This document shows, in pieces, positions 22,889 to 63,625 of a DNA stretch of 64,000 nucleotides (its first letter is position 1; each line of letters starts with the position of its first letter). A program made the position numbers and the translations under genes. Origin of the DNA: a virus (Duplodnaviria > Heunggongvirae > Uroviricota > Caudoviricetes); IMG/VR virus record IMGVR_UViG_3300029996_000255. The stretch is one strand, 5' to 3'. The notes under the pieces were generated by a model. It had not been told where the DNA came from, searched no databases, and saw only the letters and a list, made by a program, of their open reading frames with translations.

Positions 22889-23146
22889 TTGAGTAGATAT
22901 AAGAATGGAAACCCAAAACATGCAAGTCGATTCATATGTTTAAAATGTATGAATGAAAATATGTTAGCCAGTGGAATTCAGAGACAGAGACAAAGAGAAC
23001 GAAAACATATTAAGGATTTGTATTGTTTGAAGTGTGGAGAGGTAACGAAGTGCATCGAAGTAAGATTTTGTGATTCTTATGAAGAAATTTTTGAGGTTGC
23101 AAAGATAAAAAGAGAGAATTATTACATAGACAATTATGAAAGGTAG
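22889..23146 (+). CDS. hypothetical zinc-ribbon protein (CLKCMN...CLKCGE)
   Basis: ORF track; AATGAGGTGAATAATG RBS. Confidence 0.45.
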   Translation: MSRYKNGNPKHASRFICLKCMNENMLASGIQRQRQRERKHIKDLYCLKCGEVTKCIEVRFCDSYEEIFEVAKIKRENYYIDNYER

Positions 23147-24152
23147 GTTGATGATAATGTGTTATAAAATAGAAGTGCAGAATAAAAATGCGGAGAAGCT
23201 TAATAAAAAATTAGATGAGTTAAATGCACCACAATTTTTAAGAGATTACTTAAATGAGTTGGAAAGCAAAAACGGAGCGCTAAATTATTTAGTGGCAATT
23301 AAAGATTTTTTACAGTGGTTGATTGAAAGTAATATTATTAATAAGAAATCAATTTCTGAAATAGAAGTTTCTGATTTTAATGACCTAAGACCACAAAATA
23401 TTAGTTCATATCTTAGATATAAGGAAACAAATGGAATGTCACCAACCACAACAGAAACAAGGAAAAATATCATTAAAAGTTTTATACAGGATATTTATTC
23501 ATACAGAGAGTGTTTGTTAAGAGAAGTTTATAGTAATATAGAAGATTTTTACAAAATGATTAAATATAAGGGAATCCCATCTGGAAACAACTTAATAAAA
23601 AAACTTCCAACAGAAAAGCAGCTTAATGACATGGAAGAGAAGATAATGTGGAAAAAGGATATTGCAGTAAAAAATAGGAATATTGCTATCTTTAGGGTAT
23701 TAAGGGGCACTGGTATAAGAGAGTCAGAGCTTGCTGGCTTAGATTTATCTGATTTACATTTGAAGGAAGAAATGCCATACATTACTATTCTTGGCAAAGG
23801 TGTGTACAGAGAAATGCAAAATAGAACCGTATATCTTAGCGGATCAGCCTTAAAAGCATTGAAAGAGTGGTTAGAGTATAGGTTGACATTGGATAATATT
23901 ATTGATACAGAAGCAGTTTTTATTAATAAAAACGGAACACGTACAACAGAGAAAAATATTAAGCAGATATTTGAAAATTACGGAAATGGTATTACTGCAC
24001 ATATGATGAGACATTATTATGCTACTGTAATGAATCAAAATGGAAATCTTGCATTCGTACAACAGCAGCTTGGGCATAGTAGTGTAAAAACAACTGTCAA
24101 AAATTATGCAAATGGAGCAGTGGGAATGAAAGATGTACTAAATAATATGTGA
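23136..24152 (+). CDS. int: tyrosine site-specific recombinase / phage integrase (alternative starts at 23151 and 23157)
   Basis: C-terminal catalytic motifs R..ELAGL, HMMRHYYAT, LGHSSVKTTVKNY read from the translation. Confidence 0.85.
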   Translation: MKGRLMIMCYKIEVQNKNAEKLNKKLDELNAPQFLRDYLNELESKNGALNYLVAIKDFLQWLIESNIINKKSISEIEVSDFNDLRPQNISSYLRYKETNGMSPTTTETRKNIIKSFIQDIYSYRECLLREVYSNIEDFYKMIKYKGIPSGNNLIKKLPTEKQLNDMEEKIMWKKDIAVKNRNIAIFRVLRGTGIRESELAGLDLSDLHLKEEMPYITILGKGVYREMQNRTVYLSGSALKALKEWLEYRLTLDNIIDTEAVFINKNGTRTTEKNIKQIFENYGNGITAHMMRHYYATVMNQNGNLAFVQQQLGHSSVKTTVKNYANGAVGMKDVLNNM

Positions 24153-27013: not shown

Positions 27014-28558
27014 ATGGCAGTAATGTTAGGAAGAGATAAGGTAGTAAAGACACAATTAATGTTAGGAACGGTGATTAAGCAGTTTAGAACAAATGTAATC
27101 AATAAGAATCATCCATTACAGAGAAAACCTGATCAGTGGTCGGACGAAGCAAAATCTGGACTTGCTGCCAGTGTAATTAAACATGAAGATATTGATTCAA
27201 TTAAATTATGTGAACAGATTTACGAAAATAGTTTCACAAACTGGCTTATTGATGGATTACAGAGATTAACTGTATTGGAAGAGTTTAAAAATAATGTCTT
27301 TGCAATGGGAAAATCATTGAGAATGCCTATGATAGCTTATCAAGCTGAAGATGGAAGTGGTAATGTTGTTGAGTATGATTTAAGAGGTAAGAAATACAAA
27401 GACCTTCCAGATGAGTTAAGAGAAGAATTTGATAATTTCCAGGTAGATATAGTTAAGCATCTTGATTGTACTAATGAAGAGATAGCTTATCATATTGATA
27501 GATATAATAAGCAGACAAGTATGAATACAAATCAGAAAAATGTTTTGATGATGTATAAAGTGGTAGATTCACTTAAAAGGGTTACAAAGAATAGATTCTT
27601 CTTGGACTGTGGTGAATATACAGCACCTGAAAGAAAGAAAGAAGTATTAAATAGAGTAGTTGAAGAGTCATTAATGTTAATGTTCCATTCTGATTCTTGG
27701 AAGAAAAACGCAGCTATGGCTAAGTATCTTAATGAAAATGCCGCAGAAGAGGAATTCAATATATTAGAAGAGGAACTTAATAGATTACAAAAAGTAATAG
27801 ATCAAGATACTAACGGACAGTTATTTAATAGCAAGAATAGCTTTATTTGGTTGGCAGCTTTTCATAAGTTTACTTCATATAACATAGAAGATATTAAATT
27901 TGCTGATTTCTTAAATGAATTTCAGGGAATATTACATAGCATGACATTTAAAGAATATGATAATGAATCATTTGATACATATGATAGCAACCGAAGCACA
28001 AAGGATAAAAAAGTTGTAATGGCTAAGTTAGATATGGTTACTAAGCTTATGGAAGAATATTTACATATAAATAAGGAAGAAACTCATTCAGAAATCGAAG
28101 AAGTTGTTGAAAATACAACAGAAAACACAGTACAAATTATCTCTGGAACAGAGAATAATACTATGTCTTCTAATGAAGACGATGAAACAGATAGTAATAT
28201 ATCAGAACAGAATACGGGTAGTTCTGATGTATTACAGTTTGTTCAAAATAGTGTGGCAGAAGATATAGAGAATGAAGATATAAGTGAATATCAAGATTTT
28301 GTTGATGTATATATTGATATAAATTCATCGTTATATAAACAGTGTGAAGCAGCGTTAATGGCATTAACAGCTTATGCTTATAAAACTGATAAGGATGAAG
28401 AACTTGCAACTTGGATTGAACAGTATCAGAAGAATTCAATTGATAAGACATATAGTTCTTCGCAGGAAGTAAATTATAGATATATGAAGAGAGATTTTGA
28501 TAATTACATAAATTTCTTAAATAATATGGAGAAAGGAAGAACAGCTAGTGTTAATTAA
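27014..28558 (+). CDS. DUF262 (ParB/GmrSD-N-like) domain protein with the IDGLQRLT motif; long acidic low-complexity C-terminal tail and no recognisable HNH/DUF1524 domain
   Basis: DGQQR-type motif at residues ~79-86. Confidence 0.55.
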   Translation: MAVMLGRDKVVKTQLMLGTVIKQFRTNVINKNHPLQRKPDQWSDEAKSGLAASVIKHEDIDSIKLCEQIYENSFTNWLIDGLQRLTVLEEFKNNVFAMGKSLRMPMIAYQAEDGSGNVVEYDLRGKKYKDLPDELREEFDNFQVDIVKHLDCTNEEIAYHIDRYNKQTSMNTNQKNVLMMYKVVDSLKRVTKNRFFLDCGEYTAPERKKEVLNRVVEESLMLMFHSDSWKKNAAMAKYLNENAAEEEFNILEEELNRLQKVIDQDTNGQLFNSKNSFIWLAAFHKFTSYNIEDIKFADFLNEFQGILHSMTFKEYDNESFDTYDSNRSTKDKKVVMAKLDMVTKLMEEYLHINKEETHSEIEEVVENTTENTVQIISGTENNTMSSNEDDETDSNISEQNTGSSDVLQFVQNSVAEDIENEDISEYQDFVDVYIDINSSLYKQCEAALMALTAYAYKTDKDEELATWIEQYQKNSIDKTYSSSQEVNYRYMKRDFDNYINFLNNMEKGRTASVN

Positions 28559-28742
28559 AACATTGTTAAAAAGTATTGTATTAAAAAAGAAAATGCAAAT
28601 TGAAATAATGGAAACCTTGTCTGATATTTGTTTATATATGCAATTAGACGGATTCAAAAAAGATAATGGGTATGGTCAATTTATGTATACACATTATAGC
28701 AATTTACAGGATATTTTAAAAGAGTATAAGGGAGAAAAATAA
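28548..28742 (+). CDS. hypothetical protein
   Basis: ORF track. Confidence 0.35.
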   Translation: MLIKTLLKSIVLKKKMQIEIMETLSDICLYMQLDGFKKDNGYGQFMYTHYSNLQDILKEYKGEK

Positions 28743-28744
28743 CT

Positions 28745-28945
28745 ATGCCAGATATTACAATGTGTACAAGCAAAACATGTGAAAGAAGAAAACAGTGTTA
28801 TAGAGCAATAGCAAAGCCAGATAAGATACAAAGTTATGCTGATTTTACTTCGTTATGTGCAGATAGAGATTTTAGATGTCAATGGATTGTTACTGACAGA
28901 GAAGTACTTGCTGATGATATAAGTAGCTTGTTAGTAAGATGCTAA
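28745..28945 (+). CDS. small Cys-rich protein
   Basis: ORF track; ATGC overlap. Confidence 0.4.
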   Translation: MPDITMCTSKTCERRKQCYRAIAKPDKIQSYADFTSLCADRDFRCQWIVTDREVLADDISSLLVRC

Positions 28946-28964
28946 AATACAGGAGAATAATAAA

Positions 28965-29108
28965 ATGGATAAAGATACAAATAAGCGAAATGAACTTAGA
29001 AAACAGTTACAAGCCTTATCAAAGGAGCGAATTATTGAATTATATATTCACTTATTCATGAATTTTTCTAATGATAAGGATGAAACCGATTGGGAAGATA
29101 TTAAATAG
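28965..29108 (+). CDS. small hypothetical protein (47 aa)
   Basis: AGGAGAATAATAAA ATG. Confidence 0.3.
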   Translation: MDKDTNKRNELRKQLQALSKERIIELYIHLFMNFSNDKDETDWEDIK

Positions 29109-29244
29109 AAGAGAACAGATTGCAAAAGTTTGCCGACCTAAACAATCTGCTCAGAGAATAAAATATAGGATAAACTATATATGTTCTATTATAACAAATC
29201 TATTTGGCTAATTCAAGCCAGTTTATCCTATAACAATTAGTCTT

Positions 29245-29324
29245 TTGACTACGGGCTATTTTGAGTCCGAATAGTGAGGATTATATCACTCACTGAAAAG
29301 TATGTAATTTATATGTAATTTGAA
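29245..29324 (+). repeat. module A: ~80-bp structured prefix (..CCGAATAGTGAGG hairpin CTCACTGAAAAGTATGTAATT..TTTGAA) directly preceding repeat unit 1; a ~65%-identical copy (module B) lies at 29508-29587
   Basis: alignment of the two segments by eye. Confidence 0.5.
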
Positions 29325-29688
29325 GTTTTGGAAGTATATGAAATTACATACTAACAAAATACCTGGCAACAGAGAGGAGATGTTTCAGTTGTTTTGGAAG
29401 TATAGTTACATACTAGCAAAATTACATGATATATATCGACACAAGTTATAAAATTTTAGAAGTATATAAAATTACATCTCATTAAAAGAATATATAAATG
29501 AAATTAAAATCAATTCTATTGCGGTAGATTTTACTGCCGAATCGTGAGTGCAATGCAACTCATGAAAATCTATGTAATAAGTTTGAGGTTTTAGATACAT
29601 ATAAAATTACATAGGTATAAAACTAAAAATATGAAAATAAAAGTTAATGACAGTTTTAGATACATATAAAATTACATAGGTATAAAAC
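29325..29688 (+). CRISPR. CRISPR-like mini-array with five 32-36-bp direct repeats: 29325-29360, 29391-29422, 29453-29488, 29588-29623 and 29653-29688, the last two identical (GTTTTAGATACATATAAAATTACATAGGTATAAAAC). Spacers are 30, 30 and 29 bp, plus one ~99-bp interval occupied by module B
   Basis: repeat/spacer periodicity of 62-66 bp; repeats begin GTTTTRGA and end AAAA[CT]/AAAG with GTTTTA...TAAAAC terminal complementarity. Confidence 0.55.
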
Positions 29689-29769
29689 ACTTGCGTTGTT
29701 GTACTTGTAAACTGTTTAATTTTAGAGATATTTAAAATTACAAAAAATATAAAAGGAGATTTACAAATT

Positions 29770-31158
29770 ATGGGAAACAATAGAATGACAATTTGTAGAA
29801 AAATTAAATTATTTCCAGTAGGAGATAAGGATGAAATCAATAGAGTATATGACTTTATTAGAAATGGTCAGTATGCTCAATATCAGGCTTGTAACCTGCT
29901 TATGGGACAGCTTATGAGTGAATATTACAAATATAATCGTGATATTAAGAATGAAGAATTTAAGGCAAGACAGAAAGAAATAATGACAAACTCTAATATC
30001 ATATTAAAAGATATTGATTTTGCAACTGGTGTAGACACTCCATCAGCCGTTACTCAGAAAGTCAAGCAGGATTTCAGCACAGCTTTAAAGAATGGATTGG
30101 CTAAAGGTGAACGAACTGTAACAAATTATAAGAGAACTAATCCACTTATTACAAGAGGCAGAAACTTAACTTTTTATCATGAGTATGAAACATATCATGA
30201 TTTTTTAGACAAGATTAATGATTCTGATTTGGCGGTATATGTCAAGTGGGTTAATAAAATTGTATTTAAGGTTGTGTTTGGCAATCCGCATAGGTCATTA
30301 GAGTTAAGATCTGTTATTCAGAATATATTAGAAGAGAATTATAAAGTGCAAGGAAGTAGCATTGAAATTGATGGTAAGTCAATCATTTTAAATCTCTCAA
30401 TATCTATTCCAAAACAACTTAGAGAGCTGGATGAAAATATAGTAGTAGGTGTTGATTTAGGCATTGCAGTTCCTGCTATGTGTGCTTTAAACAATAATCT
30501 TTACGAGAGATTGGCAATTGGAAATGCAGATGATTTTCTAAGAATAAGAACTAAAATGCAAGCTCAGAGAAAAAGATTACAGAAGTCATTACGAAATACT
30601 TCTGGTGGTCATGGTAGAGCAAAGAAACTGAAAGCATTAGAAAGATTGCAGAAAGCAGAAGTACATTTTGTTGAAACATATTGTCATATGATAAGTAAAA
30701 GAGTCGTTGATTTTGCTTTAAAACATAATGCTAAATACATAAATATTGAGAATTTAACAGGATATGATACAAGTGATTTTATCCTGAGAAATTGGAGTTA
30801 TTATAAACTTCAAGATTATATTACATATAAAGCAGCTAAATACGGAATAGAAGTAAGAAAAATCAATCCTTGTTATACATCACAGATTTGTAGTGTATGT
30901 GGTAATTGGGAGTTTGGTCAGAGAAAGTCACAGTCAGTATTTGAATGTGCAAATGAGAATTGTGATAGTCATAAAAAATATGAAAAAACTGGTTTTAATG
31001 CAGACTTCAATGCTGCCAGAAACATTGCAATGTCAACTCTTTGGATGGGAAGTGGACAAGTTACTGAAAAGAGTAAACAGGAAGCAAGAGAATATTATGA
31101 TATCTCTGAAAAATATGAACAAAGTAAGAATGGTTCAGAGAATAATAAAGTAGCTTAA
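29770..31158 (+). CDS. TnpB/Cas12f-like RuvC nuclease (462 aa): RuvC-I VVGVDLGIAVPAM, Arg-rich helix, RuvC-II YINIENLTG, CxxC...CxxC zinc ribbon (CYTSQICSVCG...FECANENCDSH), RuvC-III NADFNAARNIA; catalytic D/E/D all present
   Basis: domain order and motifs match OrfB_IS605 plus the Zn-ribbon architecture; AAAAGGAGA RBS. Confidence 0.8.
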   Translation: MGNNRMTICRKIKLFPVGDKDEINRVYDFIRNGQYAQYQACNLLMGQLMSEYYKYNRDIKNEEFKARQKEIMTNSNIILKDIDFATGVDTPSAVTQKVKQDFSTALKNGLAKGERTVTNYKRTNPLITRGRNLTFYHEYETYHDFLDKINDSDLAVYVKWVNKIVFKVVFGNPHRSLELRSVIQNILEENYKVQGSSIEIDGKSIILNLSISIPKQLRELDENIVVGVDLGIAVPAMCALNNNLYERLAIGNADDFLRIRTKMQAQRKRLQKSLRNTSGGHGRAKKLKALERLQKAEVHFVETYCHMISKRVVDFALKHNAKYINIENLTGYDTSDFILRNWSYYKLQDYITYKAAKYGIEVRKINPCYTSQICSVCGNWEFGQRKSQSVFECANENCDSHKKYEKTGFNADFNAARNIAMSTLWMGSGQVTEKSKQEAREYYDISEKYEQSKNGSENNKVA

Positions 31159-31268
31159 GTGCTACTTAATCAATCGTAAGATTGCAGGTGATTTTGCACC
31201 TGAATGGCGAGGTTGTTAATTAATGGCACTCGTTAGAATCTATGTTAATAGTATCTGTGTGATTTGAG

Positions 31269-31304
31269 GTTTTAGATATGTTTAATTTAACATAGATACA
31301 AAAC
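31269..31304 (+). repeat. solitary 36-bp repeat downstream of the nuclease gene (GTTTTAGATATGTTTAATTTAACATAGATACAAAAC, ~78% identical to the upstream units), preceded by a partial module-like prefix (AATCTATGTTAATA..GATTTGAG)
   Basis: direct comparison with units 4 and 5. Confidence 0.5.
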
Positions 31305-31419
31305 ACGGTTAAGACAACATTTTACTCAGTAAAATGATTATTCAATATAGATACTACAGAAATGTTGAGATTATCAAGCTAATGGAAGAAAAATATAATA
31401 CGAAAAGGAGAATAGTTAA

Positions 31420-31581
31420 ATGTCAGTATTTTTTATATTAGTTTTAATAGGATTAATAATTTTATGGTTTCTACTGTCACCTTTATTTGAAAAAATTGGT
31501 AAGTTTGTTATCAATGTTATAAATAAAGTATTTTCGACAGATGAAATAAATAATAACGAAGAAAAGGAGACAAAAGAATGA
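31420..31581 (+). CDS. NfeD-like small membrane protein (53 aa), translationally coupled (ATGA) to the SPFH gene
   Basis: hydrophobic N-terminus FFILVLIGLIILWFLL; classic NfeD-SPFH operon arrangement; AAAGGAGAATAG RBS. Confidence 0.4.
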   Translation: MSVFFILVLIGLIILWFLLSPLFEKIGKFVINVINKVFSTDEINNNEEKETKE

Positions 31582-32447
31582 AGAAAACAATCGGAGGAGT
31601 AGTAACAGTAGTAGTAATTGTTGTTGTAGCAATATTATTATTTATGTCAAGTGTGCGTGTACCTGCTGGCTATATTGCCGTACAGTACAGTATGTCGGGT
31701 GGAGTAAAAGGCGATATTCTTACACAAGGATGGCATTTAAAGTCACCAACTGTAAAAACGACACTTTACTCGGTGAGTCTTGAACAGAGTTATTTAACAT
31801 CTGGTAAGGACGGAGACTCTAAAGATGATGACAGCTTTTCAGCGAGTTCATCTGAGGGTAAGGCTATGCAGATAGATCTTACATTTACATATCAGTATAG
31901 TCCTGATAAGGTAGCTGATCTATTTACAAGATTTAGAGGACAATCTGGAAAGGAAGTAAGAGACAGTTTTATTAAACCTAACATTATTTCTTGGACTAAA
32001 GAAATTGTTGCTAACTATAAGGTGTCAGATATTCTTGGTTCTGAAAGAGCAAATGTAAATACAGCATTAACTGATTATCTTAATAAGAAGTTTGAACCAT
32101 ATGGTATAGCGATTAGTAATGTATCATTGATTAATATTTCCGTTGATACAAAGACACAGGAAGCTATTAATGCAAAGATTACAGCACAGCAGGCAGCCGA
32201 AACTCAGGAAATTAATAATCAGACAGCTATTAATAAGGCAAAGGCTGATGCAGAAGTAACTAAGGCAGAAGCACAAGCAAAGGCTGATGCACAGTTAATC
32301 GAAGCCAAAGCACAGGCAGAGGCGAATAATAAGTTAAGTTCTTCTATTACAGATGAGCTTATAAGAATGAAGGAAGCCGAAGCAAGAAATAAATTTGGTT
32401 GGGTTACTATTTCTGGAACTAACAATACAGTTGTAACAGATAAGTAA
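31578..32447 (+). CDS. SPFH/band-7 (HflC/HflK/prohibitin-like) membrane protein with N-terminal TM helix and C-terminal Ala/Gln-rich coiled coil
   Basis: PAGYIAVQYSMSGGVKGDILTQGWHLKSP SPFH core motif. Confidence 0.7.
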   Translation: MKKTIGGVVTVVVIVVVAILLFMSSVRVPAGYIAVQYSMSGGVKGDILTQGWHLKSPTVKTTLYSVSLEQSYLTSGKDGDSKDDDSFSASSSEGKAMQIDLTFTYQYSPDKVADLFTRFRGQSGKEVRDSFIKPNIISWTKEIVANYKVSDILGSERANVNTALTDYLNKKFEPYGIAISNVSLINISVDTKTQEAINAKITAQQAAETQEINNQTAINKAKADAEVTKAEAQAKADAQLIEAKAQAEANNKLSSSITDELIRMKEAEARNKFGWVTISGTNNTVVTDK

Positions 32448-32493: not shown

Positions 32494-32566
32494 TGGGATG
32501 TGGTGAAGTGGTCAACACATCAGATTTTGATTCTGACATTCGTGGGTTCGAATCCCACCATCCTAG
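32494..32566 (+). tRNA. tRNA-Gln (anticodon TTG)
   Basis: manual cloverleaf: acceptor TGGGATG/CATCCTA (U1:A72, typical of bacterial tRNA-Gln), anticodon stem TCAGA/TCTGA with loop TTTTGAT, T-arm GTGGG-TTCGAAT-CCCAC. Confidence 0.7.
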
Positions 32567-32570
32567 CTGT

Positions 32571-32643
32571 GTGCTATTAGATCAATAGGTAGAGCACTTG
32601 ACTTTTAATCAAGATGTTACGAGTTCAAGCCTCGTATGGCACA
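32571..32643 (+). tRNA. tRNA-Lys (anticodon TTT)
   Basis: acceptor GTGCTAT/ATGGCAC, D-loop with GG, anticodon stem CTTGA/TCAAG with loop CTTTTAA, T-arm ACGAG-TTCAAGC-CTCGT. Confidence 0.7.
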
Positions 32644-32672
32644 TTATTTATTATATTAGGAGGTATTTCAAA

Positions 32673-38822: not shown

Positions 38823-39377
38823 ATGTCAAATTTATATGTATATTTAATTCGTTCTCGAAATAAAGACAATAAGGATATTCCAAATTTCAAAGAACGAGCC
38901 GAAACAATTCTTGAATGTAGAGAGAATGAAGACAAGGTAATTGAAGATTTTAAGAGTTTTGCAGCTGAAGGAGTTCCTGGTGAACAGACAAGGTTGTATA
39001 GGTCGGTTAATTCAAGAAACGAAGAGAAAATCAGAGAAGAGTTTGTTATTCGTCTGTTAAGAGATAAACCAAGTATGACCCGGTTAAATCGCACATTAGC
39101 ATCTGTTGCACAACAGGTACAGAATCGTGATGAGAGTAAGTGGTTGTTTGATTTTGATGTGGATGATGATAGTTTAGTTTTAGAATTTATCTATGATATT
39201 ACAAATTATGGAATCGTGTTTAATCAAATCAAATTGTATAAGACACCGAATGGGTTTGCCGTTATAGTTCCGCATGGATTTGATACAAGAGAGCTGATGG
39301 AAAAGTGGAAAGATTATGACATTACATTGAAAAAAGATGAGTTGTTGTTTTTGAATATGATAACGAATGGAGAATAG
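38823..39377 (+). CDS. hypothetical protein (184 aa)
   Basis: TAAGGAGAATAAATACA ATG. Confidence 0.5.
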   Translation: MSNLYVYLIRSRNKDNKDIPNFKERAETILECRENEDKVIEDFKSFAAEGVPGEQTRLYRSVNSRNEEKIREEFVIRLLRDKPSMTRLNRTLASVAQQVQNRDESKWLFDFDVDDDSLVLEFIYDITNYGIVFNQIKLYKTPNGFAVIVPHGFDTRELMEKWKDYDITLKKDELLFLNMITNGE

Positions 39378-39378
39378 T

Positions 39379-40119
39379 ATGTACGAAAAATTGAGAGAAT
39401 ATATAGAAGAATCAAATGATATTGTATTCTTTGGTGGAGCAGGTGTATCTACTGAAAGTGGTATTCCAGATTTTCGTTCCAAGGATGGATTATATAATCA
39501 GCATGATGTTCAGTTTGATAAATACGAGCCAGAGTATCTTTTGAGTAGAGAATGTTTATATAACAATCCAAAAGTATTTTATGAATTCTATCGTCAGAAG
39601 ATGGATACAAGAAACATTGAGCCAAACATTACTCATAAGGTACTTGCTAAAATGGAAAAGATGGGTAAGCTGAAGGCTATTGTTACACAGAATATTGATG
39701 GACTTCATCAGAAGGCTGGCAGTAAAAATGTATTTGAGATTCATGGAACTACTCAGAAAAATTATTGTAGCAAATGCAAAATGGAATATCATCCTGATTT
39801 CTTATTCGATACTAAAGAAGCTATCCCAAAGTGTAAATGTGGTGGACTAATCAGACCTGATGTGACTTTATATGGAGAAAAATTGCCTGATGAAGCTGTA
39901 AATGGTGCTGTTGAAGCAATTAGTAAAGCCGATATGTTGATTATTGGTGGTACTTCATTACAGGTTTATCCAGCAGCAAATTACATCTCATATTTTAGTG
40001 GTAGACATTTGATTGTTATCAATAGAGAAAAAATCCATGTGCTATTGAACGGAGATACTGATTTGATGATTGTTGATTCGTTGGGTAATGTATTTACTGA
40101 GATTGAGAAATGGATGTGA
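39379..40119 (+). CDS. Sir2-family NAD+-dependent protein deacylase / ADP-ribosyltransferase-like protein (CobB-like, 246 aa)
   Basis: GAGVSTESGIPDFRS NAD-binding motif; Zn-binding CSKCK...CKCGG; GTSLQVYPAA motif. Confidence 0.85.
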   Translation: MYEKLREYIEESNDIVFFGGAGVSTESGIPDFRSKDGLYNQHDVQFDKYEPEYLLSRECLYNNPKVFYEFYRQKMDTRNIEPNITHKVLAKMEKMGKLKAIVTQNIDGLHQKAGSKNVFEIHGTTQKNYCSKCKMEYHPDFLFDTKEAIPKCKCGGLIRPDVTLYGEKLPDEAVNGAVEAISKADMLIIGGTSLQVYPAANYISYFSGRHLIVINREKIHVLLNGDTDLMIVDSLGNVFTEIEKWM

Positions 40120-41065: not shown

Positions 41066-41699
41066 AGAAGTTAAAGTAAAAGCAAGAAGTAGAAATACAA
41101 AATTATTCGAGAGTTTGGGGTATAAGATTCCAAGAGACAAAGATGATCGAGGAAGAACTCGTGTAGTCCCTAATGCTACCATCATGGTTAAAATAGAGGA
41201 TCTACCAGAAGGGAGCAATGCAATAGTTAAATATCAATGTGATGATTGCGGTTCAATACATACAGTACATTATTCAGATTTAGCATATAGAAAAAATAGT
41301 CGTTTTAAGAAAAATGGTGAGACGTTATGTATTTATTGTTCTAATCATAGAAATTCTGGACAAAATAATCCTCAATATAAACATGGAGAACAAAGGTATT
41401 CTGAATATAGAAGTAACGCACGAAATAGGGGAATAGAGTTTAAACTGTCAGTTGAAGAGTTTAAAAATATAGTAAAACAACCTTGTCATTATTGTGGAGG
41501 ATTTTCATCAGAGTGGAATAAAAATAGCAGAGGTAATGGAATAGATAGAAAAAATAGTGACATAGGTTATATTTATGAAAATTGTGTTCCGTGTTGTAGT
41601 AAATGTAATTTTGTAAAAAACAATACCCCATATGATAAATTTTTGATATATATACGGAGGTTATATGAGACAACAAAGAATTATAAAATTTCGAAATAG
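41001..41699 (+). CDS. HNH homing endonuclease inserted inside the C5-methyltransferase gene (CHYCGG...NGIDRKNSDIGYIYENCVPCCSKCNFVK). Start uncertain; alternative ATGs at 41025-41031
   Basis: HNH motif; sits in a different frame from both methyltransferase halves. Confidence 0.7.
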   Translation: MKLYIIITMMMNGRWWKILLTKEVKVKARSRNTKLFESLGYKIPRDKDDRGRTRVVPNATIMVKIEDLPEGSNAIVKYQCDDCGSIHTVHYSDLAYRKNSRFKKNGETLCIYCSNHRNSGQNNPQYKHGEQRYSEYRSNARNRGIEFKLSVEEFKNIVKQPCHYCGGFSSEWNKNSRGNGIDRKNSDIGYIYENCVPCCSKCNFVKNNTPYDKFLIYIRRLYETTKNYKISK

Positions 41700-42210
41700 A
41701 AAGACAGGTGAAATTCAAACTTTTTCAGTAAGATTGATAGACTCTTCTTTATTTGGTTCTCAGAATCGTGAGAGATATTATTGGACAAACATACCGCTAG
41801 GTGAATTGCCTGAAGAATCTCCATTAGTTTTGAAAGATATTATGGAAAATAATGTAGGTGAGAAGTATTTCTACAAGAAGGACTTTGAGATTTTGGATAT
41901 GAATAAGCGTGTATGTGCTGAACTAAAGGTCAACACAACAGAAATGTGTAAAAGAATTTATAATCCAGATTTCAAAATGTCAACATTAACATGCGTGTCA
42001 GGTGGATATCACGAAAAGAAAGTATTAGATAGTGGTAGACCACGAAAACTTACAGAAGTTGAATATGAAAGATTACAGGGATTGCCTGATAATTTTACAA
42101 AAATTCAGCTTAACAATCGTTGGTTATCATACTCAAAAAGATGTAGTTTGATGGGCAATGGATGGAATGAACCTACTATTGAATGGATTTTGAGTGGGTT
42201 AAGAGAATAA
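41665..42210 (+). CDS. C5-cytosine DNA methyltransferase, C-terminal half (motif VIII QNRERYYW, target-recognition domain, motif IX RKLTEVEYERLQGLPDNF, motif X GNGW), with its own RBS (ACGGAGG) and ATG
   Basis: motifs read from the translation. Confidence 0.7.
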   Translation: MRQQRIIKFRNRKTGEIQTFSVRLIDSSLFGSQNRERYYWTNIPLGELPEESPLVLKDIMENNVGEKYFYKKDFEILDMNKRVCAELKVNTTEMCKRIYNPDFKMSTLTCVSGGYHEKKVLDSGRPRKLTEVEYERLQGLPDNFTKIQLNNRWLSYSKRCSLMGNGWNEPTIEWILSGLRE

Positions 42211-44675: not shown

Positions 44676-45188
44676 ATGAGTAAAACACTAATTGTAATTG
44701 ATATGCAGAATGACTTTATTGATGGCTCACTTGGCACAAATGAAGCACAGAGTATTGTACTTAATGTGGCAAAGAAAATCAAGGAGTACAGAGAAAATGG
44801 TGATAGTGTAATTTTTACAAGAGATACACACCCAAATAATTATTTAGAAACATATGAAGGAAAGCATCTCCCAGTTGTCCATTGTGTAAAAAATACAATC
44901 GGATGGCAGATTTCAGATAAGTTAGATTTTGATATTGAGAATGACGTAGTTATTGATAAGCCGACTTTCGGATGGACACATTGGGATGATTTTGATTTTA
45001 CAGAAGTAGAAGTTTGTGGTCTTTGTACAGACATTTGTGTAGTGTCAAATGCACTTATGATTAGAGCAAATTATCCTAATATTGATATTACAGTGGATGC
45101 AAGTTGCTGTGCAGGTGTTACACCTGAGACGCATAAGGCTGCATTAGAGACAATGAAGATGTGTCAGATTAACGTGATTGGAGAGTAG
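44676..45188 (+). CDS. pncA: isochorismatase-family cysteine hydrolase, nicotinamidase (PncA)-like
   Basis: LIVIDMQNDFIDGSLG N-terminal motif, catalytic Cys in VCGLCTDICV, Zn-binding H...H. Confidence 0.7.
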   Translation: MSKTLIVIDMQNDFIDGSLGTNEAQSIVLNVAKKIKEYRENGDSVIFTRDTHPNNYLETYEGKHLPVVHCVKNTIGWQISDKLDFDIENDVVIDKPTFGWTHWDDFDFTEVEVCGLCTDICVVSNALMIRANYPNIDITVDASCCAGVTPETHKAALETMKMCQINVIGE

Positions 45189-45191
45189 AAT

Positions 45192-46028
45192 ATGATTAAA
45201 ATTAATGGTGAAATTGTAGCAATCAACAAGTTCCCAGATGGAACACCAAGAGTAAATATTGATACAAACAACATCGAGGAAGACACTTATGATGGCTCTC
45301 CTTGCATTTGGATTGAATGGATTTATGAGAGTAACGATGAGATGTTTTATCTGATGTTAGTAAGGAAACATCTTGAAAGATTTTTTACTAATGTGGATTA
45401 TTATTTATATCTTCCATATATTCCTAATGCACGAATGGATAGAGTAAAAAATGATGATGAAGTATTCACATTGAAGTATTTTTGCGATTTTATCAATTGG
45501 TTAGGATTTTCATCAGTTTATGTTTTAGATGCTCATAGCGATGTTTCTACTGCATTACTCAATAATTGTGTAAAAGAAAATCCAAAAGAGTATGTTGATA
45601 AAGCTATTTCAAAGATTGGCATGAGAAATCTTGTACTTTATTTCCCAGACGCAGGTGCAGCTAAGAGATATTCAGATTTATTCCCTGAGTTACCATATTG
45701 TTATGGTGAAAAGAAAAGAGATTGGAAGACTGGCAAAATCCTTGGATTAGACATTATAACAAATGGTATTGATTTGAAGGACAAAGCTGTGTTAATGATT
45801 GATGATATTATCGCATATGGCGGTTCACTTTATTATAGCGCAGAAGAATTAAAGAAGATTGGTGTAAATGAGATTTATGCTTATGCAACACATACAGAAA
45901 ATTCAATTCTTGATAAAGAAAAGGGTACGTTGATTAAGTCTTTGGAGAATAATACAGTGAGAGCATTATTCACAACAAACAGTATTTTTACTGGCAAGCA
46001 TGAAAAGATTACAGTTATGGAGGTTTAA
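45192..46028 (+). CDS. ribose-phosphate pyrophosphokinase (PRPP synthetase)-family protein; candidate ADP-ribose pyrophosphokinase (Adps) of an NARP1-type NAD+ reconstitution pathway
   Basis: PRPP/phosphoribosyl-binding loop VLMIDDIIAYGGSL; adjacent to a NAMPT homolog. Confidence 0.65.
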   Translation: MIKINGEIVAINKFPDGTPRVNIDTNNIEEDTYDGSPCIWIEWIYESNDEMFYLMLVRKHLERFFTNVDYYLYLPYIPNARMDRVKNDDEVFTLKYFCDFINWLGFSSVYVLDAHSDVSTALLNNCVKENPKEYVDKAISKIGMRNLVLYFPDAGAAKRYSDLFPELPYCYGEKKRDWKTGKILGLDIITNGIDLKDKAVLMIDDIIAYGGSLYYSAEELKKIGVNEIYAYATHTENSILDKEKGTLIKSLENNTVRALFTTNSIFTGKHEKITVMEV

Positions 46029-46032
46029 AATT

Positions 46033-47493
46033 ATGGATAACACAATGGCTTTATTACTTAGTGATACTTATAAGCAGTGTCATGATCGTATGTACCCAAA
46101 GGGATTAACTAAGTTAGTCTCATATTGGGTGCCTCGTAAATCAATGTTGGAAAATCAGAATCATATGGTTTTCTTCGGATTACAGGCTTTTATTAAGGAA
46201 TATCTAATTGGATATTTCCAGAAGAATTTCTTTGAATTATCAGAGAATGAGATGTTATCTCTTTATACAGATTCAATGGATGTGCAGATTGGCAGAGATA
46301 ATTACGACTTAGAGAAGATTGTAGAACTTCACAGACTTGGTTATCTGCCACTTGAAATTAGAGCTTTACCAGAGGGAACACTTGTACCAATGGGAGTTCC
46401 TTGTATTGAAATTACCAATACAGATGACAAATTTGCATGGCTTGTTCAGTGGATTGAGTGTATCCTTCAGGTTGAATTATGGAAGCCTTGCTGTCACGCA
46501 ACTATTGGTCATATGTATCGTGAGATTGCAGATTATTGGTATAACAAAACAACAGACGGTTTACCTGGCAATATGGCTTGTGCCGATTTTGGTATGAGAG
46601 GTATGTCTTGTATGGACGAAGCTACAAGATGTTCTGCTTCATGGTTATTATCTTTCAATAAGACTTCAACTATTCCTGCCATTACATATATTGATAAATA
46701 TTACAATGCTGATTGTAAGAATAATGGTATTGGAATTGGTGCAGTGTCAACAGAACATTCCGTAATGGGAGCAAATTACTCAATTGATGGTGATGAGATT
46801 ACATTTGTTAAGAGATTGCTTACAGAATTATATCCAAATACTTCATTCAGTATGGTTTCAGATACTTATGATTATTGGAATATGGTAAACAATATTCTTC
46901 CACAGTGCAAGGAAGAAATTATGAATCATAATGGCAAGTTACTTGTTCGTCCTGATAGTGGTGATATTGTAGAGATTTCAGTTAAGACAGTAGAAAGATT
47001 ATGGGATATCTTTGGTGGTTCTATCAATGGCAAGGGTTATAAGGTGTTAGATCCACATATTGGTATTATCTATGGTGACGGATGTACTCTTTCTAATGTA
47101 GAAACTATTTGGAAAGAATTAGAAAAGCGTGGATTTGCAGCTAATAACATTGCTTATGGTGTAGGTGCATTTTGTTTTACAGCTATTGTCGAGAATGGAA
47201 AGATGATTGTTGTTACAAGAGATACTTTTGGAATTGCAATGAAGGCTACTTATGGAGTTATTGATGGTAAGAAGCTTATGATCTTCAAAGATCCGAAGAC
47301 TGATACAAGCCATTTAAAGAAATCTCATAAGGGGTGTTGCAAAGTATATGAAGAAGATGGAGAACTGAAGTGTCAGGATCAGTTACTCGATATGAATGAA
47401 GATAGTTTGCTTACAACTGTATTCAAGAATGGAGAATTAGTAAGAGAGGATACATTTGAGGACATTAGGAACAGAATGTATGGAGGAAAGTAA
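46033..47493 (+). CDS. nadV: nicotinamide phosphoribosyltransferase (NAMPT/NadV) family protein; candidate Namat
   Basis: N-terminal LLLSDTYKQCHDRMYPKG...VSYWVPR pattern and ~490-aa size typical of NAMPT. Confidence 0.7.
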   Translation: MDNTMALLLSDTYKQCHDRMYPKGLTKLVSYWVPRKSMLENQNHMVFFGLQAFIKEYLIGYFQKNFFELSENEMLSLYTDSMDVQIGRDNYDLEKIVELHRLGYLPLEIRALPEGTLVPMGVPCIEITNTDDKFAWLVQWIECILQVELWKPCCHATIGHMYREIADYWYNKTTDGLPGNMACADFGMRGMSCMDEATRCSASWLLSFNKTSTIPAITYIDKYYNADCKNNGIGIGAVSTEHSVMGANYSIDGDEITFVKRLLTELYPNTSFSMVSDTYDYWNMVNNILPQCKEEIMNHNGKLLVRPDSGDIVEISVKTVERLWDIFGGSINGKGYKVLDPHIGIIYGDGCTLSNVETIWKELEKRGFAANNIAYGVGAFCFTAIVENGKMIVVTRDTFGIAMKATYGVIDGKKLMIFKDPKTDTSHLKKSHKGCCKVYEEDGELKCQDQLLDMNEDSLLTTVFKNGELVREDTFEDIRNRMYGGK

Positions 47494-47494
47494 T

Positions 47495-47902
47495 ATGGAT
47501 TTTTATCTTCAAGCCAATAATTCCTACAATAGATTAGAGGAAGAATTTAAGAAATATGGCAAGCTTATTTTTTGTGTAGATTTCGATGATACGATTTATG
47601 ACTTCCATAAGAAGGGTAGGACATATGAGAATGTCATTAATCTTTTACAAAGATGGGAGAATTATTCAGAGATAATTATTTTTACTGGGAATGGTGAAGA
47701 TAAATACGGAATGATTGAGCAGTATCTAAAGGACAACAATATCAAGTATAGAGGTATCAATTGTGACGCATCTGTAGCTTTTGCAAGTAGAAAAATATAT
47801 GCAAATGTTTATATTGATGACAGAGGCGGTTTAATTCAGGTGTACAATGAATTACTTACATTGATTGAGAAGATTGAAAAAGGAGAGATAAAGCATGAGT
47901 AA
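47495..47902 (+). CDS. HAD-superfamily hydrolase-like protein (motif I FCVDFDDTIY)
   Basis: DxDxT motif; GGAAAGTAAT ATG. Confidence 0.5.
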   Translation: MDFYLQANNSYNRLEEEFKKYGKLIFCVDFDDTIYDFHKKGRTYENVINLLQRWENYSEIIIFTGNGEDKYGMIEQYLKDNNIKYRGINCDASVAFASRKIYANVYIDDRGGLIQVYNELLTLIEKIEKGEIKHE

Positions 47903-48638
47903 TTTTGACGCAAAGACAGTAAAGAATGAAGTAGTACAGTGGATCAGAGATTGGTTTGAGAAGAATGGCAAGGATTGTAATGCAGTAGTTGGGATTTCAG
48001 GAGGTAAGGACTCAAGTGTTGTAGCTGCTCTGTGCGTAGAAGCTCTTGGAAAGGATAGAGTGTTTGGTGTACTTATGCCACAGGGAGAACAGTCAGACAT
48101 TAGTTATTCTCATATGCTTGTTGAACATCTTGGAATTGATAGTTGTGTTGTTAATATTGGTAACACAGTTCGTACATTAAAGCATGAGATTAAGCCACAG
48201 TTAGGAGATCATTGGTCAAAACAGACATCTACAAATCTTCCAGCTCGTATCAGAATGGCTACACTTTATGCAGTATCTCAGACAATCAATGGTCGTGTTG
48301 CTAATACGTGCAATCTTTCAGAGGATTGGGTAGGTTATGCGACCAGATATGGAGATGCAGCAGGTGATTTCAGTCCACTATCGCAGCTCACAGTTTCGGA
48401 AGTTAAGGCGATTGGTCGTGAATTAGGACTTCCATCTGAGTTAGTAGATAAGACACCTACTGACGGTCTTTGTGGAAAGACTGACGAGGACAACCTTGGA
48501 TTCACTTATTACACTCTTGATAGATATATCAGAACAGGGGAGATTGATGATGAGGATGTAAAAGCGAAGATTGATTCAATGCATGAGAAGAATTTATTCA
48601 AGCTTCAGCTTATGCCATCATTTCATCCAAATTTTTAA
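47895..48638 (+). CDS. nadE: NH3-dependent NAD+ synthetase (NadE, PP-loop ATP pyrophosphatase)
   Basis: GISGGKDSSVVAAL PP-loop; typical ~245-aa size. Confidence 0.8.
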   Translation: MSNFDAKTVKNEVVQWIRDWFEKNGKDCNAVVGISGGKDSSVVAALCVEALGKDRVFGVLMPQGEQSDISYSHMLVEHLGIDSCVVNIGNTVRTLKHEIKPQLGDHWSKQTSTNLPARIRMATLYAVSQTINGRVANTCNLSEDWVGYATRYGDAAGDFSPLSQLTVSEVKAIGRELGLPSELVDKTPTDGLCGKTDEDNLGFTYYTLDRYIRTGEIDDEDVKAKIDSMHEKNLFKLQLMPSFHPNF

Positions 48639-49737: not shown

Positions 49738-50610
49738 TTGAAAAATACATATATCAAATCGCCTCTAAATTATGTCGGAGGCAAGTATAAGTTACTGCCA
49801 CAGATTATACCCCTTATACCAAAAGATATTAATACATTTGTAGATTTATTTGGTGGTGGATTTAATGTTGGGATTAACATTGAAGTAAAGCATTTGGTTT
49901 ACAATGATATTTGTAAACAGGTGGTAGATTTATTGGAACATTTCTACAATAATGATTCTGAGTATATTCATAATATGATTTTAAAAACCATATCTGATTT
50001 TGGATTAAGCAGGTCTGATCTTAATGGTTATGAAGTATATGGATGTGAGTCAAGTAAAGGTCTTGGCGAATATAATAAGCCTAAATACTTTGAATTAAGA
50101 AAAGCATACAACTCTAATCCTGATTGGATTAAATTCTATACACTTATAACGTGTTCGTTTAGTAATCAGATACGATTCAATTCTAAAGGTGAATTTAATA
50201 TGCCTTATGGAAAACGTGATTATAATATTTCCCTACAAGAAAAATTAAAGACTTTTGTTGATGAAATGCATAAAAAAGACATTCAATTTTGGAATAAAGA
50301 TTTTAGAGAATGTAATTTTTTTGCAGACGATTTTATATATGTTGATCCACCATATTACAACTCAGTTGCTACTTATAACGAAAATGGCGGTTGGTCAGAA
50401 CAGGACGAGAAAGATTTGTTAAGTGTGTTAGATGTTGTGGACAAGCATGGCAGATTTGCACTAAGCAACAATCTTAAATATGATAATCCGTTATTAGATG
50501 AATGGAAAAATAAATATAACATTCATTATCTTAATGGTGATTATAGCAACTGTAATTATCAGAAAAAGGACAAGAGTGCCGATTGCGAGGTATTAATCAC
50601 AAATTATTAA
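49738..50610 (+). CDS. dam: Dam-family (D12 class) N6-adenine DNA methyltransferase
   Basis: SPLNYVGGKYKLLPQI, DLFGGGFNVG and YVDPPY motifs. Confidence 0.75.
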   Translation: MKNTYIKSPLNYVGGKYKLLPQIIPLIPKDINTFVDLFGGGFNVGINIEVKHLVYNDICKQVVDLLEHFYNNDSEYIHNMILKTISDFGLSRSDLNGYEVYGCESSKGLGEYNKPKYFELRKAYNSNPDWIKFYTLITCSFSNQIRFNSKGEFNMPYGKRDYNISLQEKLKTFVDEMHKKDIQFWNKDFRECNFFADDFIYVDPPYYNSVATYNENGGWSEQDEKDLLSVLDVVDKHGRFALSNNLKYDNPLLDEWKNKYNIHYLNGDYSNCNYQKKDKSADCEVLITNY

Positions 50611-62800: not shown

Positions 62801-63625
62801 ATGTACGAACCAGTAATTAAATGGAGTGGAAGTAAAAGAAGTCAGGCTGAAAAGATTTTAACATTTTTTCCAAAAGAGATTGATACCTATTATGAACCGT
62901 TTTGTGGTGGAGCTTCAGTTTTAAGGAGACTTCTCGATAGTGATATACGAGTTAAGCATTATATATGTAGTGATTTGAATAGTGGGTTGATTGACTTATG
63001 GAATGAAATTATTAACAATCCGTTAGAAGTTTCTTCTTATTATAAGAAGCTTTGGAATGAATTAAATACAGATGACGACAAGCAACGAAAGAAAGAATAT
63101 TTTGCCAATGTTAGGGACAGATACAACAAAGAGCATAATCCATTAGATTTTATGTTTATTATGAGAACAACAACTAATGGTATGCCAAGATATAACCGTA
63201 ATGGTGAATTTAACAATTCATTTCATGTGACTAGAAATGGTATTATTCCTGAAACATTTGAGAAGATAATTTTTGAATGGAGTCAATTATTAAAACAGAA
63301 TGATGTTAAATTTATCAGTTGTTTGTATGAAGATATAAAACCAACAGAGAATGATTATATGTATCTTGATCCACCTTATGCGAATACAAAAGGCATGTAT
63401 TATGGAACTATTGATTATGAAAAATTTTGGGACTATTTAAGGCAGTTGCCATGCAGATATGCTTTATCTTTTGATGGTAAGAGTGGTGATATAGATAATA
63501 CTTGGAATGTCCCTAAAGACATATATACAACACATGAGTATTTGCTAAGTGGTAATAGCAGTTTTAAGCGTACAATTGGTAAATCAAACGACAGCATTGT
63601 TTACGAAAGTTTGTATGTAAAGTAG
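62801..63625 (+). CDS. dam: Dam-family (D12 class) N6-adenine DNA methyltransferase
   Basis: IKWSGSKRSQAEKIL, EPFCGGASV and LDPPYANT motifs. Confidence 0.8.
   Translation: MYEPVIKWSGSKRSQAEKILTFFPKEIDTYYEPFCGGASVLRRLLDSDIRVKHYICSDLNSGLIDLWNEIINNPLEVSSYYKKLWNELNTDDDKQRKKEYFANVRDRYNKEHNPLDFMFIMRTTTNGMPRYNRNGEFNNSFHVTRNGIIPETFEKIIFEWSQLLKQNDVKFISCLYEDIKPTENDYMYLDPPYANTKGMYYGTIDYEKFWDYLRQLPCRYALSFDGKSGDIDNTWNVPKDIYTTHEYLLSGNSSFKRTIGKSNDSIVYESLYVK

Follow-up and report, generated by a model that had tools for sequence, protein, structure and literature searches.

A probable type V-F1 CRISPR-Cas12f system in a large tailed phage, with three guide-RNA modules around one effector gene and spacers that match other phages

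The DNA considered here is a stretch of 64,000 nucleotides (nt), hereafter the window, from a tailed phage (Caudoviricetes) in the IMG/VR database (record IMGVR_UViG_3300029996_000255). Its region 29204-31336 holds only one long open reading frame (ORF), at 29770-31158 on the + strand, which encodes a protein of 462 aa and has GGAG at 29755-29758 as its ribosome-binding site. Around this gene, cas12f1, are placed three guide-RNA modules, two upstream and one downstream and all on the + strand, each of which opens with a scaffold of 70-90 nt that resembles a trans-activating CRISPR RNA (tracrRNA) and is fused directly to the first repeat of a mini-array with zero to two functional spacers. We consider it very probable that gene and modules together constitute a phage-encoded type V-F1 CRISPR-Cas12f system which lacks an adaptation module and is aimed at competing phages. 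Behind this conclusion stand the homology of the protein and its intact catalytic triad, a covarying RNA fold, protospacers flanked by a protospacer-adjacent motif (PAM), polarised differences in spacer content between related phages, and the phage context of the locus.

The preliminary description of this DNA, made by a model from the letters alone, had delimited the same ORF and credited its product with RuvC and zinc-ribbon motifs and all three catalytic acidic residues, and this is what we find: the protein contains GVDLG (D229), NIENL (E327), CSVC...C..C (zinc-ribbon cysteines C374, C377 and C393) and NADFNAARNI (D412). Across an alignment of 16 homologues (58-89% identity) E327, D412 and the three cysteines are invariant and D229 is nearly so, and the three acidic residues align with the catalytic motifs of two Cas12f1 structures, 8hr5 and 9nzp. 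These were also the top matches in a search against the sequences of solved structures in the Protein Data Bank (PDB) (8hr5, 497 aa, E 1.3e-87; 9nzp, RhCas12f, 2e-81), with further matches to 9nzo/9nzr (Al3Cas12f, 5e-62) and to Os, As and Un1Cas12f (1e-29 to 1e-41). Every strong match was a Cas12f; the similarity to the TnpB of ISDra2 was marginal (E 0.002), Cas12p was matched at E 0.0024, and there was no Cas12j or Cas-lambda chain among the PDB matches at E<=1. The entry 8HR5, itself labelled only 'Transposase', we take to be CnCas12f1 of Clostridium novyi. The entry 9NZP is RhCas12f and 9NZO/9NZR are Al3Cas12f (PMC13186708), and RhCas12f1, with its sequence taken from PMC10090079, shares 40% identity with the phage protein over 426 aa. 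For Un1, As, Cn, Sp, Os, Rh and Al3 Cas12f, an asymmetric homodimer on one guide RNA and cleavage of double-stranded DNA have been described (PMC12255294, PMC13186708). The phage protein also matched the PADLOC models for the CAS-V-F effector Cas12f (2.5e-110) and for Cas12u3 (1.1e-110), as well as the Pfam domain Cas12f1-like_TNB (1.7e-15). Judged by its sequence, the protein is an orthologue of the characterised type V-F1 Cas12f1 nucleases (V-F1/V-U3 lineage) and not a generic TnpB. The preliminary description had left it between the TnpB and Cas12 families; our searches of PDB, PADLOC and Pfam sequences bear out the Cas12f1 side of that placement, and the proximity to TnpB falls away (0.002 vs 1e-87).

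One of the explanations offered at the outset was an IS200/IS605-type element with TnpB only, the omega-RNA and ends of which had been amplified into an array and the nuclease of which served transposon retention or homing. Database names lend this idea some support, in that the only NCBIfam model above its cut-off is the generic 'guided_TnpB' subfamily (162 bits) and the PHROGs name for the Cas12f family is 'transposase', but the match to ISDra2 TnpB is weaker by many orders of magnitude than that to the Cas12f1 structures and no transposase gene accompanies the effector. As had been described, cas1, cas2, cas4 and Y1 tnpA are absent: none had a Pfam match at E<=1e-5 among the 107 + strand ORFs of the window, which is part of a phage genome of probably more than 100 kb. 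Among relatives, no cas1, cas2 or cas4 was found within 10 kb of the locus in four cases, and no Y1 transposase is annotated in the flanks that we inspected. We return to this explanation below, where the RNA modules bear on it.

The direct repeats, 36 nt long and on the + strand, lie at 29325-29360, 29391-29422 (32 nt, with a 4-nt deletion), 29453-29488, 29588-29623, 29653-29688 and 31269-31304. These coordinates, the spacers of 30, 30 and 29 nt, and the identity of the copies at 29588 and 29653 had all been given correctly in the preliminary description; to its list we add a degenerate repeat at 29719-29754, which lies 3' of a fourth spacer and abuts the cas12f1 ribosome-binding site. The consensus 36-mer occurs exactly twice in the window, and no match to it with <=3 mismatches arose in 100 shuffles of the window. 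What does not hold is the picture of a single array that decays away from a leader next to the gene. The 99-nt gap 29488-29588 is not a spacer; it contains a second copy of the scaffold that is also found 5' of the repeats at 29325 and 31269, which divides the repeats into three tracrRNA-led modules. Since it is at the 3' end of each module that the degenerate repeats sit, degeneration runs from 5' to 3' and the leader side is the scaffold rather than the gene, so that in the two upstream modules the leader is distal to cas12f1.

In module 1 the scaffold (29248-29324; covariance-model match 29248-29360, 116.7 bits; fold z = -5.4; covariation in the alignment) comprises stem 1, CGGGCU/AGUCCG, with loop AUUUUG, stem 2, GUGAGG/CACUCAC, and an anti-repeat, GUAUGUAAUUU, which is tandemly duplicated. 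Tandem Repeats Finder reported this 11-nt duplication (29301-29321, TATGTAATTTA x1.9) and nothing else at the locus, the arrays going unseen as is expected for repeat-spacer structures; in modules 2 and 3 the anti-repeat is present in a single copy. The mini-array of module 1 (29325-29488) consists of repeat 29325-29360, spacer W1 (29361-29390), the 32-nt repeat 29391-29422, spacer W2 (29423-29452) and a degenerate terminal repeat, 29453-29488. Module 2 has a scaffold at 29518-29587 (covariance-model match 29518-29623, 112.2 bits; fold z = -3.6; covariation in the alignment) with stem 1 GCGGUAG/CUGCCG, loop AUUUUA, stem 2 CGUGAGUG/CACUCAUG and anti-repeat CUAUGUAAU, and its mini-array (29588-29754) runs from repeat 29588-29623 through spacer W3 (29624-29652), repeat 29653-29688 and spacer W4 (29689-29718) to the degenerate terminal repeat 29719-29754. 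Module 3 begins 23 nt past the cas12f1 stop codon with a scaffold at 31181-31268 (covariance-model match 31181-31304, 105.4 bits; fold z = -2.15, with 5/200 shuffles folding as well) that has stem 1 GCAGGUG/CACCUG, loop AUUUUG, an extended stem 2 and anti-repeat AUCUAUGUUAA. Its remaining part (31269-31336) is a single repeat, 31269-31304, followed without a spacer by a conserved trailer, ACGGTTAAGACAAC..., and a hairpin at 31318-31336. The 'sixth copy' of the preliminary description is therefore a real repeat, although it is not a stray one: it is the first repeat of a third module, which is spacer-less here and holds one spacer in relatives. To the left, a terminator-like hairpin at 29204-29221 (+ strand, from a consensus scan), about 25 nt 5' of the module 1 scaffold, closes the upstream genes and is the probable left limit of the transcription unit; with 2 terminator-like sites against 0.8 expected, this is weak and suggestive only.

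The stretches 5' of repeats 29325, 29588 and 31269 align with one another as a common scaffold that ends in TTTGA(G/A) immediately before the repeat. All three share one fold: stem 1 with loop AUUUU(G/A), the sequence GAAU, stem 2 (GUGAG...CACUC), an A-rich linker and the anti-repeat, the partner of which is in each module the 3' half of the repeat. The two sides of this helix change together from module to module, as GUAUGUAAUUU/AAAUUACAUAC, CUAUGUAAU/AUUACAUAG and AUCUAUGUUAA/UUAACAUAGAU. In addition, the loop of stem 1 can pair with the final bases of the repeat (in module 1, AUUUUG with CAAAAU) to form a pseudoknot of the kind described for the guide RNAs of Cas12f and other Cas12 proteins (PMC12255294; bioRxiv 10.1101/2025.01.20.633832). 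From the window and 29 related loci we assembled 46 distinct modules, 35 of which were aligned for covariation. Over the four helices 90% of cells are paired in these 35, compared with 29-45% if the partners are slid by 1-3 columns; compensatory changes on both sides were seen at 21/30 pairs, those of the pseudoknot helix included, and column shuffles never reached the observed values (0/500). The 5' part of the scaffold resembles the RhCas12f1 tracrRNA (ACGGTTGATTTAGCAACCGAAG..TGAGGG vs ACGGGCTATTTTGAGTCCGAAT.GTGAGG), while an Rfam scan of 28500-32000 found no family at E<=1. The covariance model built from the modules finds exactly three copies in the window, and it also finds copies outside its training set, in Roseburia, Clostridium sp. 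and Lachnospiraceae, which lie 5' and 3' of cas12f homologues and always on the strand of the gene. The comparison thus supports a putative transcript in which the scaffold would serve as a tracrRNA with anti-repeat, stem 1, pseudoknot and stem 2.

A major question arising from this architecture is what the spacers are directed at. Seven other viral contigs, 23-46 kb in size, contain a 29/29-nt match to spacer W3 that does not lie in an array. These protospacers span the initiation codon of a 56-aa ORF and all have (C/T)CCCA on their 5' side (the target being CCCA-TAAAAATATGAAAATAAAAG...). Spacer W4 matches 27/30 nt in the same phages about 1.1 kb from the W3 site, within a gene with a PhageMin_Tail (tape-measure-type) domain, and is preceded there by ACCA or TCCA; a variant of W4 in the related locus L005 matches them at 28/30. 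A third spacer, found in loci L015 and L017, matches 30/30 nt in the W3-target phages next to TCCA. All three independent protospacers are therefore preceded by 5'-CCA. A rough estimate from the base frequencies of DNA of about 31% GC puts the chance of CCA at about 0.008 per protospacer, and three such protospacers are unlikely to have arisen by chance. The motif agrees with the C-rich PAM of RhCas12f1, which has been used and tested with 5'-CCCA/TCCA (PMC10090079). The GC content of the targets, 30-34%, is like that of the carrier and so compatible with a shared host. In one target phage (L059, 625-664) the W4 protospacer has CTA instead of CCA on its 5' side and an extra mismatch inside, a variant that is possibly a PAM-escape allele. 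With Cas12f1 homology, a conserved tracrRNA fold and PAM-flanked protospacers in hand, the first explanation of the preliminary description, a minimal phage type V effector with mini-arrays, is the one we uphold, and its proposed comparison of spacers with phage and plasmid databases was fruitful for W3 and left W1 and W2 unmatched in the sets searched for each.

Several of our results weigh against this interpretation and need to be set beside it. Only 3/57 spacers, counted over the window and its relatives, have a detected target, and W4 has three mismatches to every target copy found. As one concatenated BLAST query the 57 spacers found nothing at E<=1 among GenBank phages or the plasmids of PLSDB, and when six spacers were scanned as exact 22-26-nt words in IMG/VR, five returned only the arrays themselves. 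No target of W2 was found in GenBank phages or PLSDB, the two sets searched for it, and none of W1 in GenBank phages, PLSDB, IMG/VR or a JGI metagenome scan, which returned arrays only. W1 had been singled out in the preliminary description as a GC-rich first spacer and hence a captured one; it is indeed GC-rich (47% vs 31% for the window), but this places it merely in the top 3.5% of random 30-mers from the window, and it is the AT-rich spacers of module 2 that have protospacers. All three matched spacers come from arrays of the module 2 type, so that for modules 1 and 3 it is only their structure that speaks for activity. Consensus scans for promoters and terminators did not rise above shuffled sequence, promoter-like sites being no commoner than in the shuffles. 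Lastly, there are no virion genes in the window, and that it comes from a phage is concluded from its place in IMG/VR, its matches to PHROGs and its accessory genes, which are typical of phages.

Could the RNA modules, then, be decoys or hijackers of a host Cas12f, or could the system be directed at the host itself, for regulation or degradation of the chromosome? Most spacers, including the old and conserved W1, lack a viral match, the mean GC content of the spacers (36%) is slightly above that of the phage (31%), and a preprint reports phage-encoded single-guide RNAs that subvert Cas9 (bioRxiv 10.64898/2026.06.01.729453). Yet an intact effector of the phage's own stands beside the RNAs in every relative examined, and the only targets that our searches of phage, plasmid, viral and metagenome sets brought up are phages with a proper PAM. 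We regard a decoy or host-directed role as very unlikely.

A comparison of phages with Cas12f proteins 95-100% identical to that of the window provides a record of spacer turnover. The number of repeat-spacer units per module varies among them, with the differences on the side of the scaffold and the trailer-side spacers held in common. W1, for instance, is a trailer-side spacer shared by relatives in which one or two further spacers lie next to the scaffold. Locus L004, with an identical protein and an upstream flank 99.9% identical, has all that the window has and, in addition, one spacer in module 1 and two units in module 2; L018, L020 and L022 have one or two different extra spacers ahead of one and the same old spacer, A(C/T)CTGGCAAC.... 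In module 3, where the window has no spacer, one spacer and a second repeat are present in L006, L007, L018-L021 and L023, and the window's trailer recurs behind the added spacer in L006, L007, L020 and L021. The spacer GTAAAAGGAAAGTGGTCTGATGCTGATCTT (GTAAAAGGAAAGTGG...), which had no protospacer in an exact scan of IMG/VR, occurs twice in tandem in module 2 of L004 (2723-2752 and 2789-2818) and once in module 3 of L023 (4536-4565), each copy lying between repeats of that module's own type. The presence of one 30-nt spacer between both module-2-type and module-3-type repeats speaks for more than one integration and against the transfer of a block of repeat and spacer, and turnover next to the scaffold is the pattern that acquisition at a leader leaves, the leader here being the scaffold. 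We therefore raise, tentatively and as a proposal we hold to be possible but rather doubtful, that the scaffold doubles as a leader and that spacers are integrated at the scaffold-repeat junction of all three modules in a phage without adaptation genes.

Two further observations were made in these arrays. A protospacer region of about 30 nt is represented in opposite orientations, with an offset of 4 nt, in the module 2 arrays of L010-L013 (2856-2886) and L014 (2811-2840), which could reflect two acquisitions from opposite strands or the inversion of a spacer unit between the self-complementary termini of the repeats; we had considered that the L014 spacer might target L010-L013, and rejected this as the match is the oppositely oriented copy inside their arrays. 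In three more distant relatives (50-58% identity), L026 (4127-4960), L027 (4146-4990) and L028 (4432-5020), three to four consecutive scaffold-repeat modules follow cas12f on its 3' side with a period of about 170-450 nt and one spacer or none each, which is close to an array of single-guide units.

These features of the modules bear on the TnpB-only element introduced above. A scaffold fused to the first repeat is omega-RNA-like, and the cassette occurs in at least three flanking contexts among phages with Cas12f >=95% identical, a variation that fits exchange of an accessory cassette by recombination as well as mobility. Against these points, the covariance model, run over the whole window, sees a single cassette with its three modules and nothing else, the downstream scaffold begins past the stop codon and does not overlap the end of the gene, and the guides are exchangeable spacers of 29-30 nt that stand between repeats and have matches, flanked by a PAM, in unrelated phages. 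As an omega-RNA-like 'flank guide' only the trailer of module 3 comes into question, and this 3' flank is conserved and kept when a spacer is added (L006, L020 and L021). We considered whether the spacer-less module 3 could use its trailer to guide the cutting of an empty site, and thereby homing, and discarded the idea: the trailer occurs only in contigs that bear the cassette, so that no empty site to home into was found. Without TnpA in the window, overlap with an omega-RNA or a guide derived from the flank, and with only marginal similarity to TnpB, the unit is extremely unlikely to be a plain insertion sequence, and this part of the preliminary description we set aside.

The same fusion of scaffold and repeat is the one point that favours the third of the original explanations, an evolutionary intermediate between TnpB with its omega-RNA and CRISPR-Cas12, in which the scaffold-repeat unit would be an omega-RNA in the course of splitting into tracrRNA and CRISPR RNA (crRNA). 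In every module the first repeat is continuous with the scaffold, the runs of one-spacer modules in L026-L028 resemble omega-RNA arrays, and such omega-RNA-like arrays are known in Cas12f1-related clades (Altae-Tran et al. 2023, PMC10691335). However, the protein appears to fall within the established Cas12f1 group, with the PAM type and tracrRNA core of orthologues in experimental use; the modules contain real repeat-spacer-repeat units, the later repeats of which need a scaffold in trans; and V-F1 loci normally have their tracrRNA between cas12f and the array (PMC10090079). We accordingly consider an intermediate status improbable and see an ordinary member of the Cas12f1 lineage instead.

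For the phage Cas12f1 system that we favour, we infer a course of events that covers transcription, processing, dimer formation, cleavage and the source of adaptation. Each module would be transcribed from just upstream of its scaffold, and scaffold and repeat would pair through the anti-repeat duplex and the pseudoknot (loop AUUUUG with the repeat 3' end CAAAAY). The first repeat would be paired in cis, which would make it a natural single-guide RNA, and later repeats would be paired in trans. Cas12f1 proteins bind their guide RNA as homodimers, and the phage protein would be expected to bind the scaffold/repeat RNA in this form. The complex would then recognise double-stranded DNA with 5'-CCA beside a match to the spacer and cut it with its RuvC site, and new spacers would be integrated by Cas1-Cas2 supplied in trans, presumably by the host. 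Because the targets are tailed phages of 23-46 kb with similar GC content, the system most likely eliminates competitors in co-infected or lysogenic cells.

IMG/VR has 20 viral contigs, up to 186 kb long (16 measure 83-186 kb), that encode Cas12f proteins 95-100% identical to that of the window, and six more viral contigs with relatives at 50-60% identity; one carrier contig is labelled human gut metagenome. The scaffold-array layout around cas12f is repeated in 26 viral loci and several bacterial ones. Species-representative genomes with relatives and adjacent arrays belong to Lachnospiraceae, Roseburia, Clostridium, Ruminococcus, Anaerotignum and Pseudobutyrivibrio, and more distant homologues sit among phage genes (terminase, capsid, scaffold, YorF/YorH and DnaB). 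In GC content the locus does not differ from the phage, which gives no sign of recent import. A DNA comparison of the locus with GenBank phages brought up no match, and tblastn found only distant TnpB-like 'transposases' at <=38% identity.

In the window itself every sizeable ORF is on the + strand, and PHROG families are represented, for example phrog_1735 (851 bits), with 55% identity to Bacillus phage TsarBomba. A tyrosine-recombinase integrase at 23136-24152, 5.6 kb upstream of the cassette, suggests that the phage is temperate or plasmid-like. The 514-aa ORF that directly precedes the cassette (27014-28558) has a weak match to the N-terminal domain of the GmrSD restriction endonuclease (DUF262; 25 bits against a Pfam cut-off of 33), and downstream of the cassette are the window's two tRNA genes, a tandem of tRNA-Gln(ttg) and tRNA-Lys(ttt) at 32494-32644. 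A gene of the SPFH/Band 7 family adjoins cas12f both in the window (31578-32447) and, together with NfeD, in a chromosomal Anaerotignum locus (L052, 8923-9858), and another lies near the homologue in L033 (19680-20648); this neighbourhood could be coincidence or recurrent. Further downstream is a cluster related to nicotinamide adenine dinucleotide (NAD), with genes of the isochorismatase/nicotinamidase type (44676-45185), for a phosphoribosyltransferase (45192-46025), NAMPT (46000-47490) and NAD synthase (47895-48635), a set that looks like the phage NAD-reconstitution used against NAD-depleting defences; a Sir2-family protein is encoded at 39367-40116. Other products to which the Pfam search of the 107 ORFs points are a Tad2-like protein (Thoeris anti-defence), a toxin of the PemK/MazF type, a GP17 superinfection-exclusion protein and a Zeta-toxin/AAA_33 kinase-like protein, and there are at least four DNA methyltransferases (5533-7164, 41665-42207, 49738-50607 and 62801-63622). 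The CRISPR cassette sits in an accessory 'arsenal' region.

Among known systems the closest are RhCas12f1 of Ruminiclostridium herbifermentans (9NZP) and 8HR5, with which the phage system shares the protein family, RuvC triad and zinc ribbon, the tracrRNA core (stem 1, pseudoknot, stem 2 and anti-repeat duplex) and a C-rich PAM on the 5' side. The differences are in genome and layout: RhCas12f1 is of a kind reported from a bacterial genome and has one tracrRNA and one array, whereas here a large phage encodes the effector and three scaffold/mini-array modules flank its gene. Moreover, the phage scaffold is shorter (about 70-90 nt vs about 125 nt), without the long insert of stem 2 and the extra stem before the anti-repeat, and the phage repeats are longer (36 nt vs 30 nt). 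With Cas12j/CasPhi, Cas-lambda and the Cas12p 'hacker' the system has in common a miniature RuvC effector, short phage arrays, a lack of adaptation genes and a presumed role in competition with other genetic elements, but its effector, at 462 aa, is of another lineage, that of an already characterised bacterial family. CasPhi needs no tracrRNA, in contrast to the conserved tracrRNA-like scaffold found here.

The likeness to TnpB and omega-RNA of IS200/IS605 elements extends to the RuvC/zinc-ribbon core and to the continuity of the first guide of each module with the scaffold, and a core of stem 1, pseudoknot and stem 2 is indeed common to Cas12f single-guide RNAs and TnpB RNA (PMC12255294); unlike those elements, the phage unit has no transposase, its array spacers differ between near-identical genomes, and its PAM-flanked targets are in foreign phages. 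The mini-arrays of Saccharolobus portogloboviruses (PMC11656645) likewise hold one to few spacers that match other viruses, but they borrow the Cas proteins of the host and copy its repeats, whereas this phage has its own effector and tracrRNA. Finally, the tracr-DR/omega-RNA arrays associated with sigma-E and dCas12f (PMC10691335, PMC13472631) are also made of repeated units of scaffold, repeat remnant and guide; dCas12f has lost its RuvC residues and acts in transcription, while the phage protein keeps the three acidic residues and its spacers have PAM-flanked targets in phages. A lack of cas1, cas2 and cas4 is general in the greater Cas12f branch (PMC10691335).

Our findings do not overturn current understanding. 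Cas12f1 effectors, their tracrRNA architecture, C-rich PAMs and the absence of adaptation genes in this branch are already in the literature, as are omega-RNA-like arrays in related clades, phage-encoded CRISPR and viral mini-arrays against related viruses (PMC10090079, PMC13186708, PMC10691335, PMC11656645). In that literature we did not find a description of this phage lineage, of three co-varying scaffold-array modules around one gene, which is an unusual layout for the locus, or of population data that show a polarised gain of spacers where tracrRNA and repeat join. What the locus adds is a well-documented natural case of a 462-aa phage Cas12f1 set against other phages, for which spacers, targets and PAM are all available, and the combination of this protein with a natural guide scaffold of about 110 nt and a 5'-CCA PAM makes it a candidate for a compact editor. 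The dozens of near-identical phages that differ mainly in their scaffold-proximal spacers are also a population data set in their own right, and the turnover recorded in them bears on the question of how Cas12f-type arrays, which never travel with cas1 and cas2, obtain their spacers. If the scaffold does act as a leader, then either host Cas1-Cas2 would be recruited to a leader that encodes a tracrRNA or spacers would be loaded by an unknown route. The fusion of scaffold and first repeat in a three-module layout is relevant to the question of how omega-RNA gave rise to tracrRNA and crRNA; in the event that the leader proposal is true, the cis-fused scaffold, repeat and spacer would be a natural single-guide RNA renewed with each acquisition, and the phage may offer a living model of that transition.

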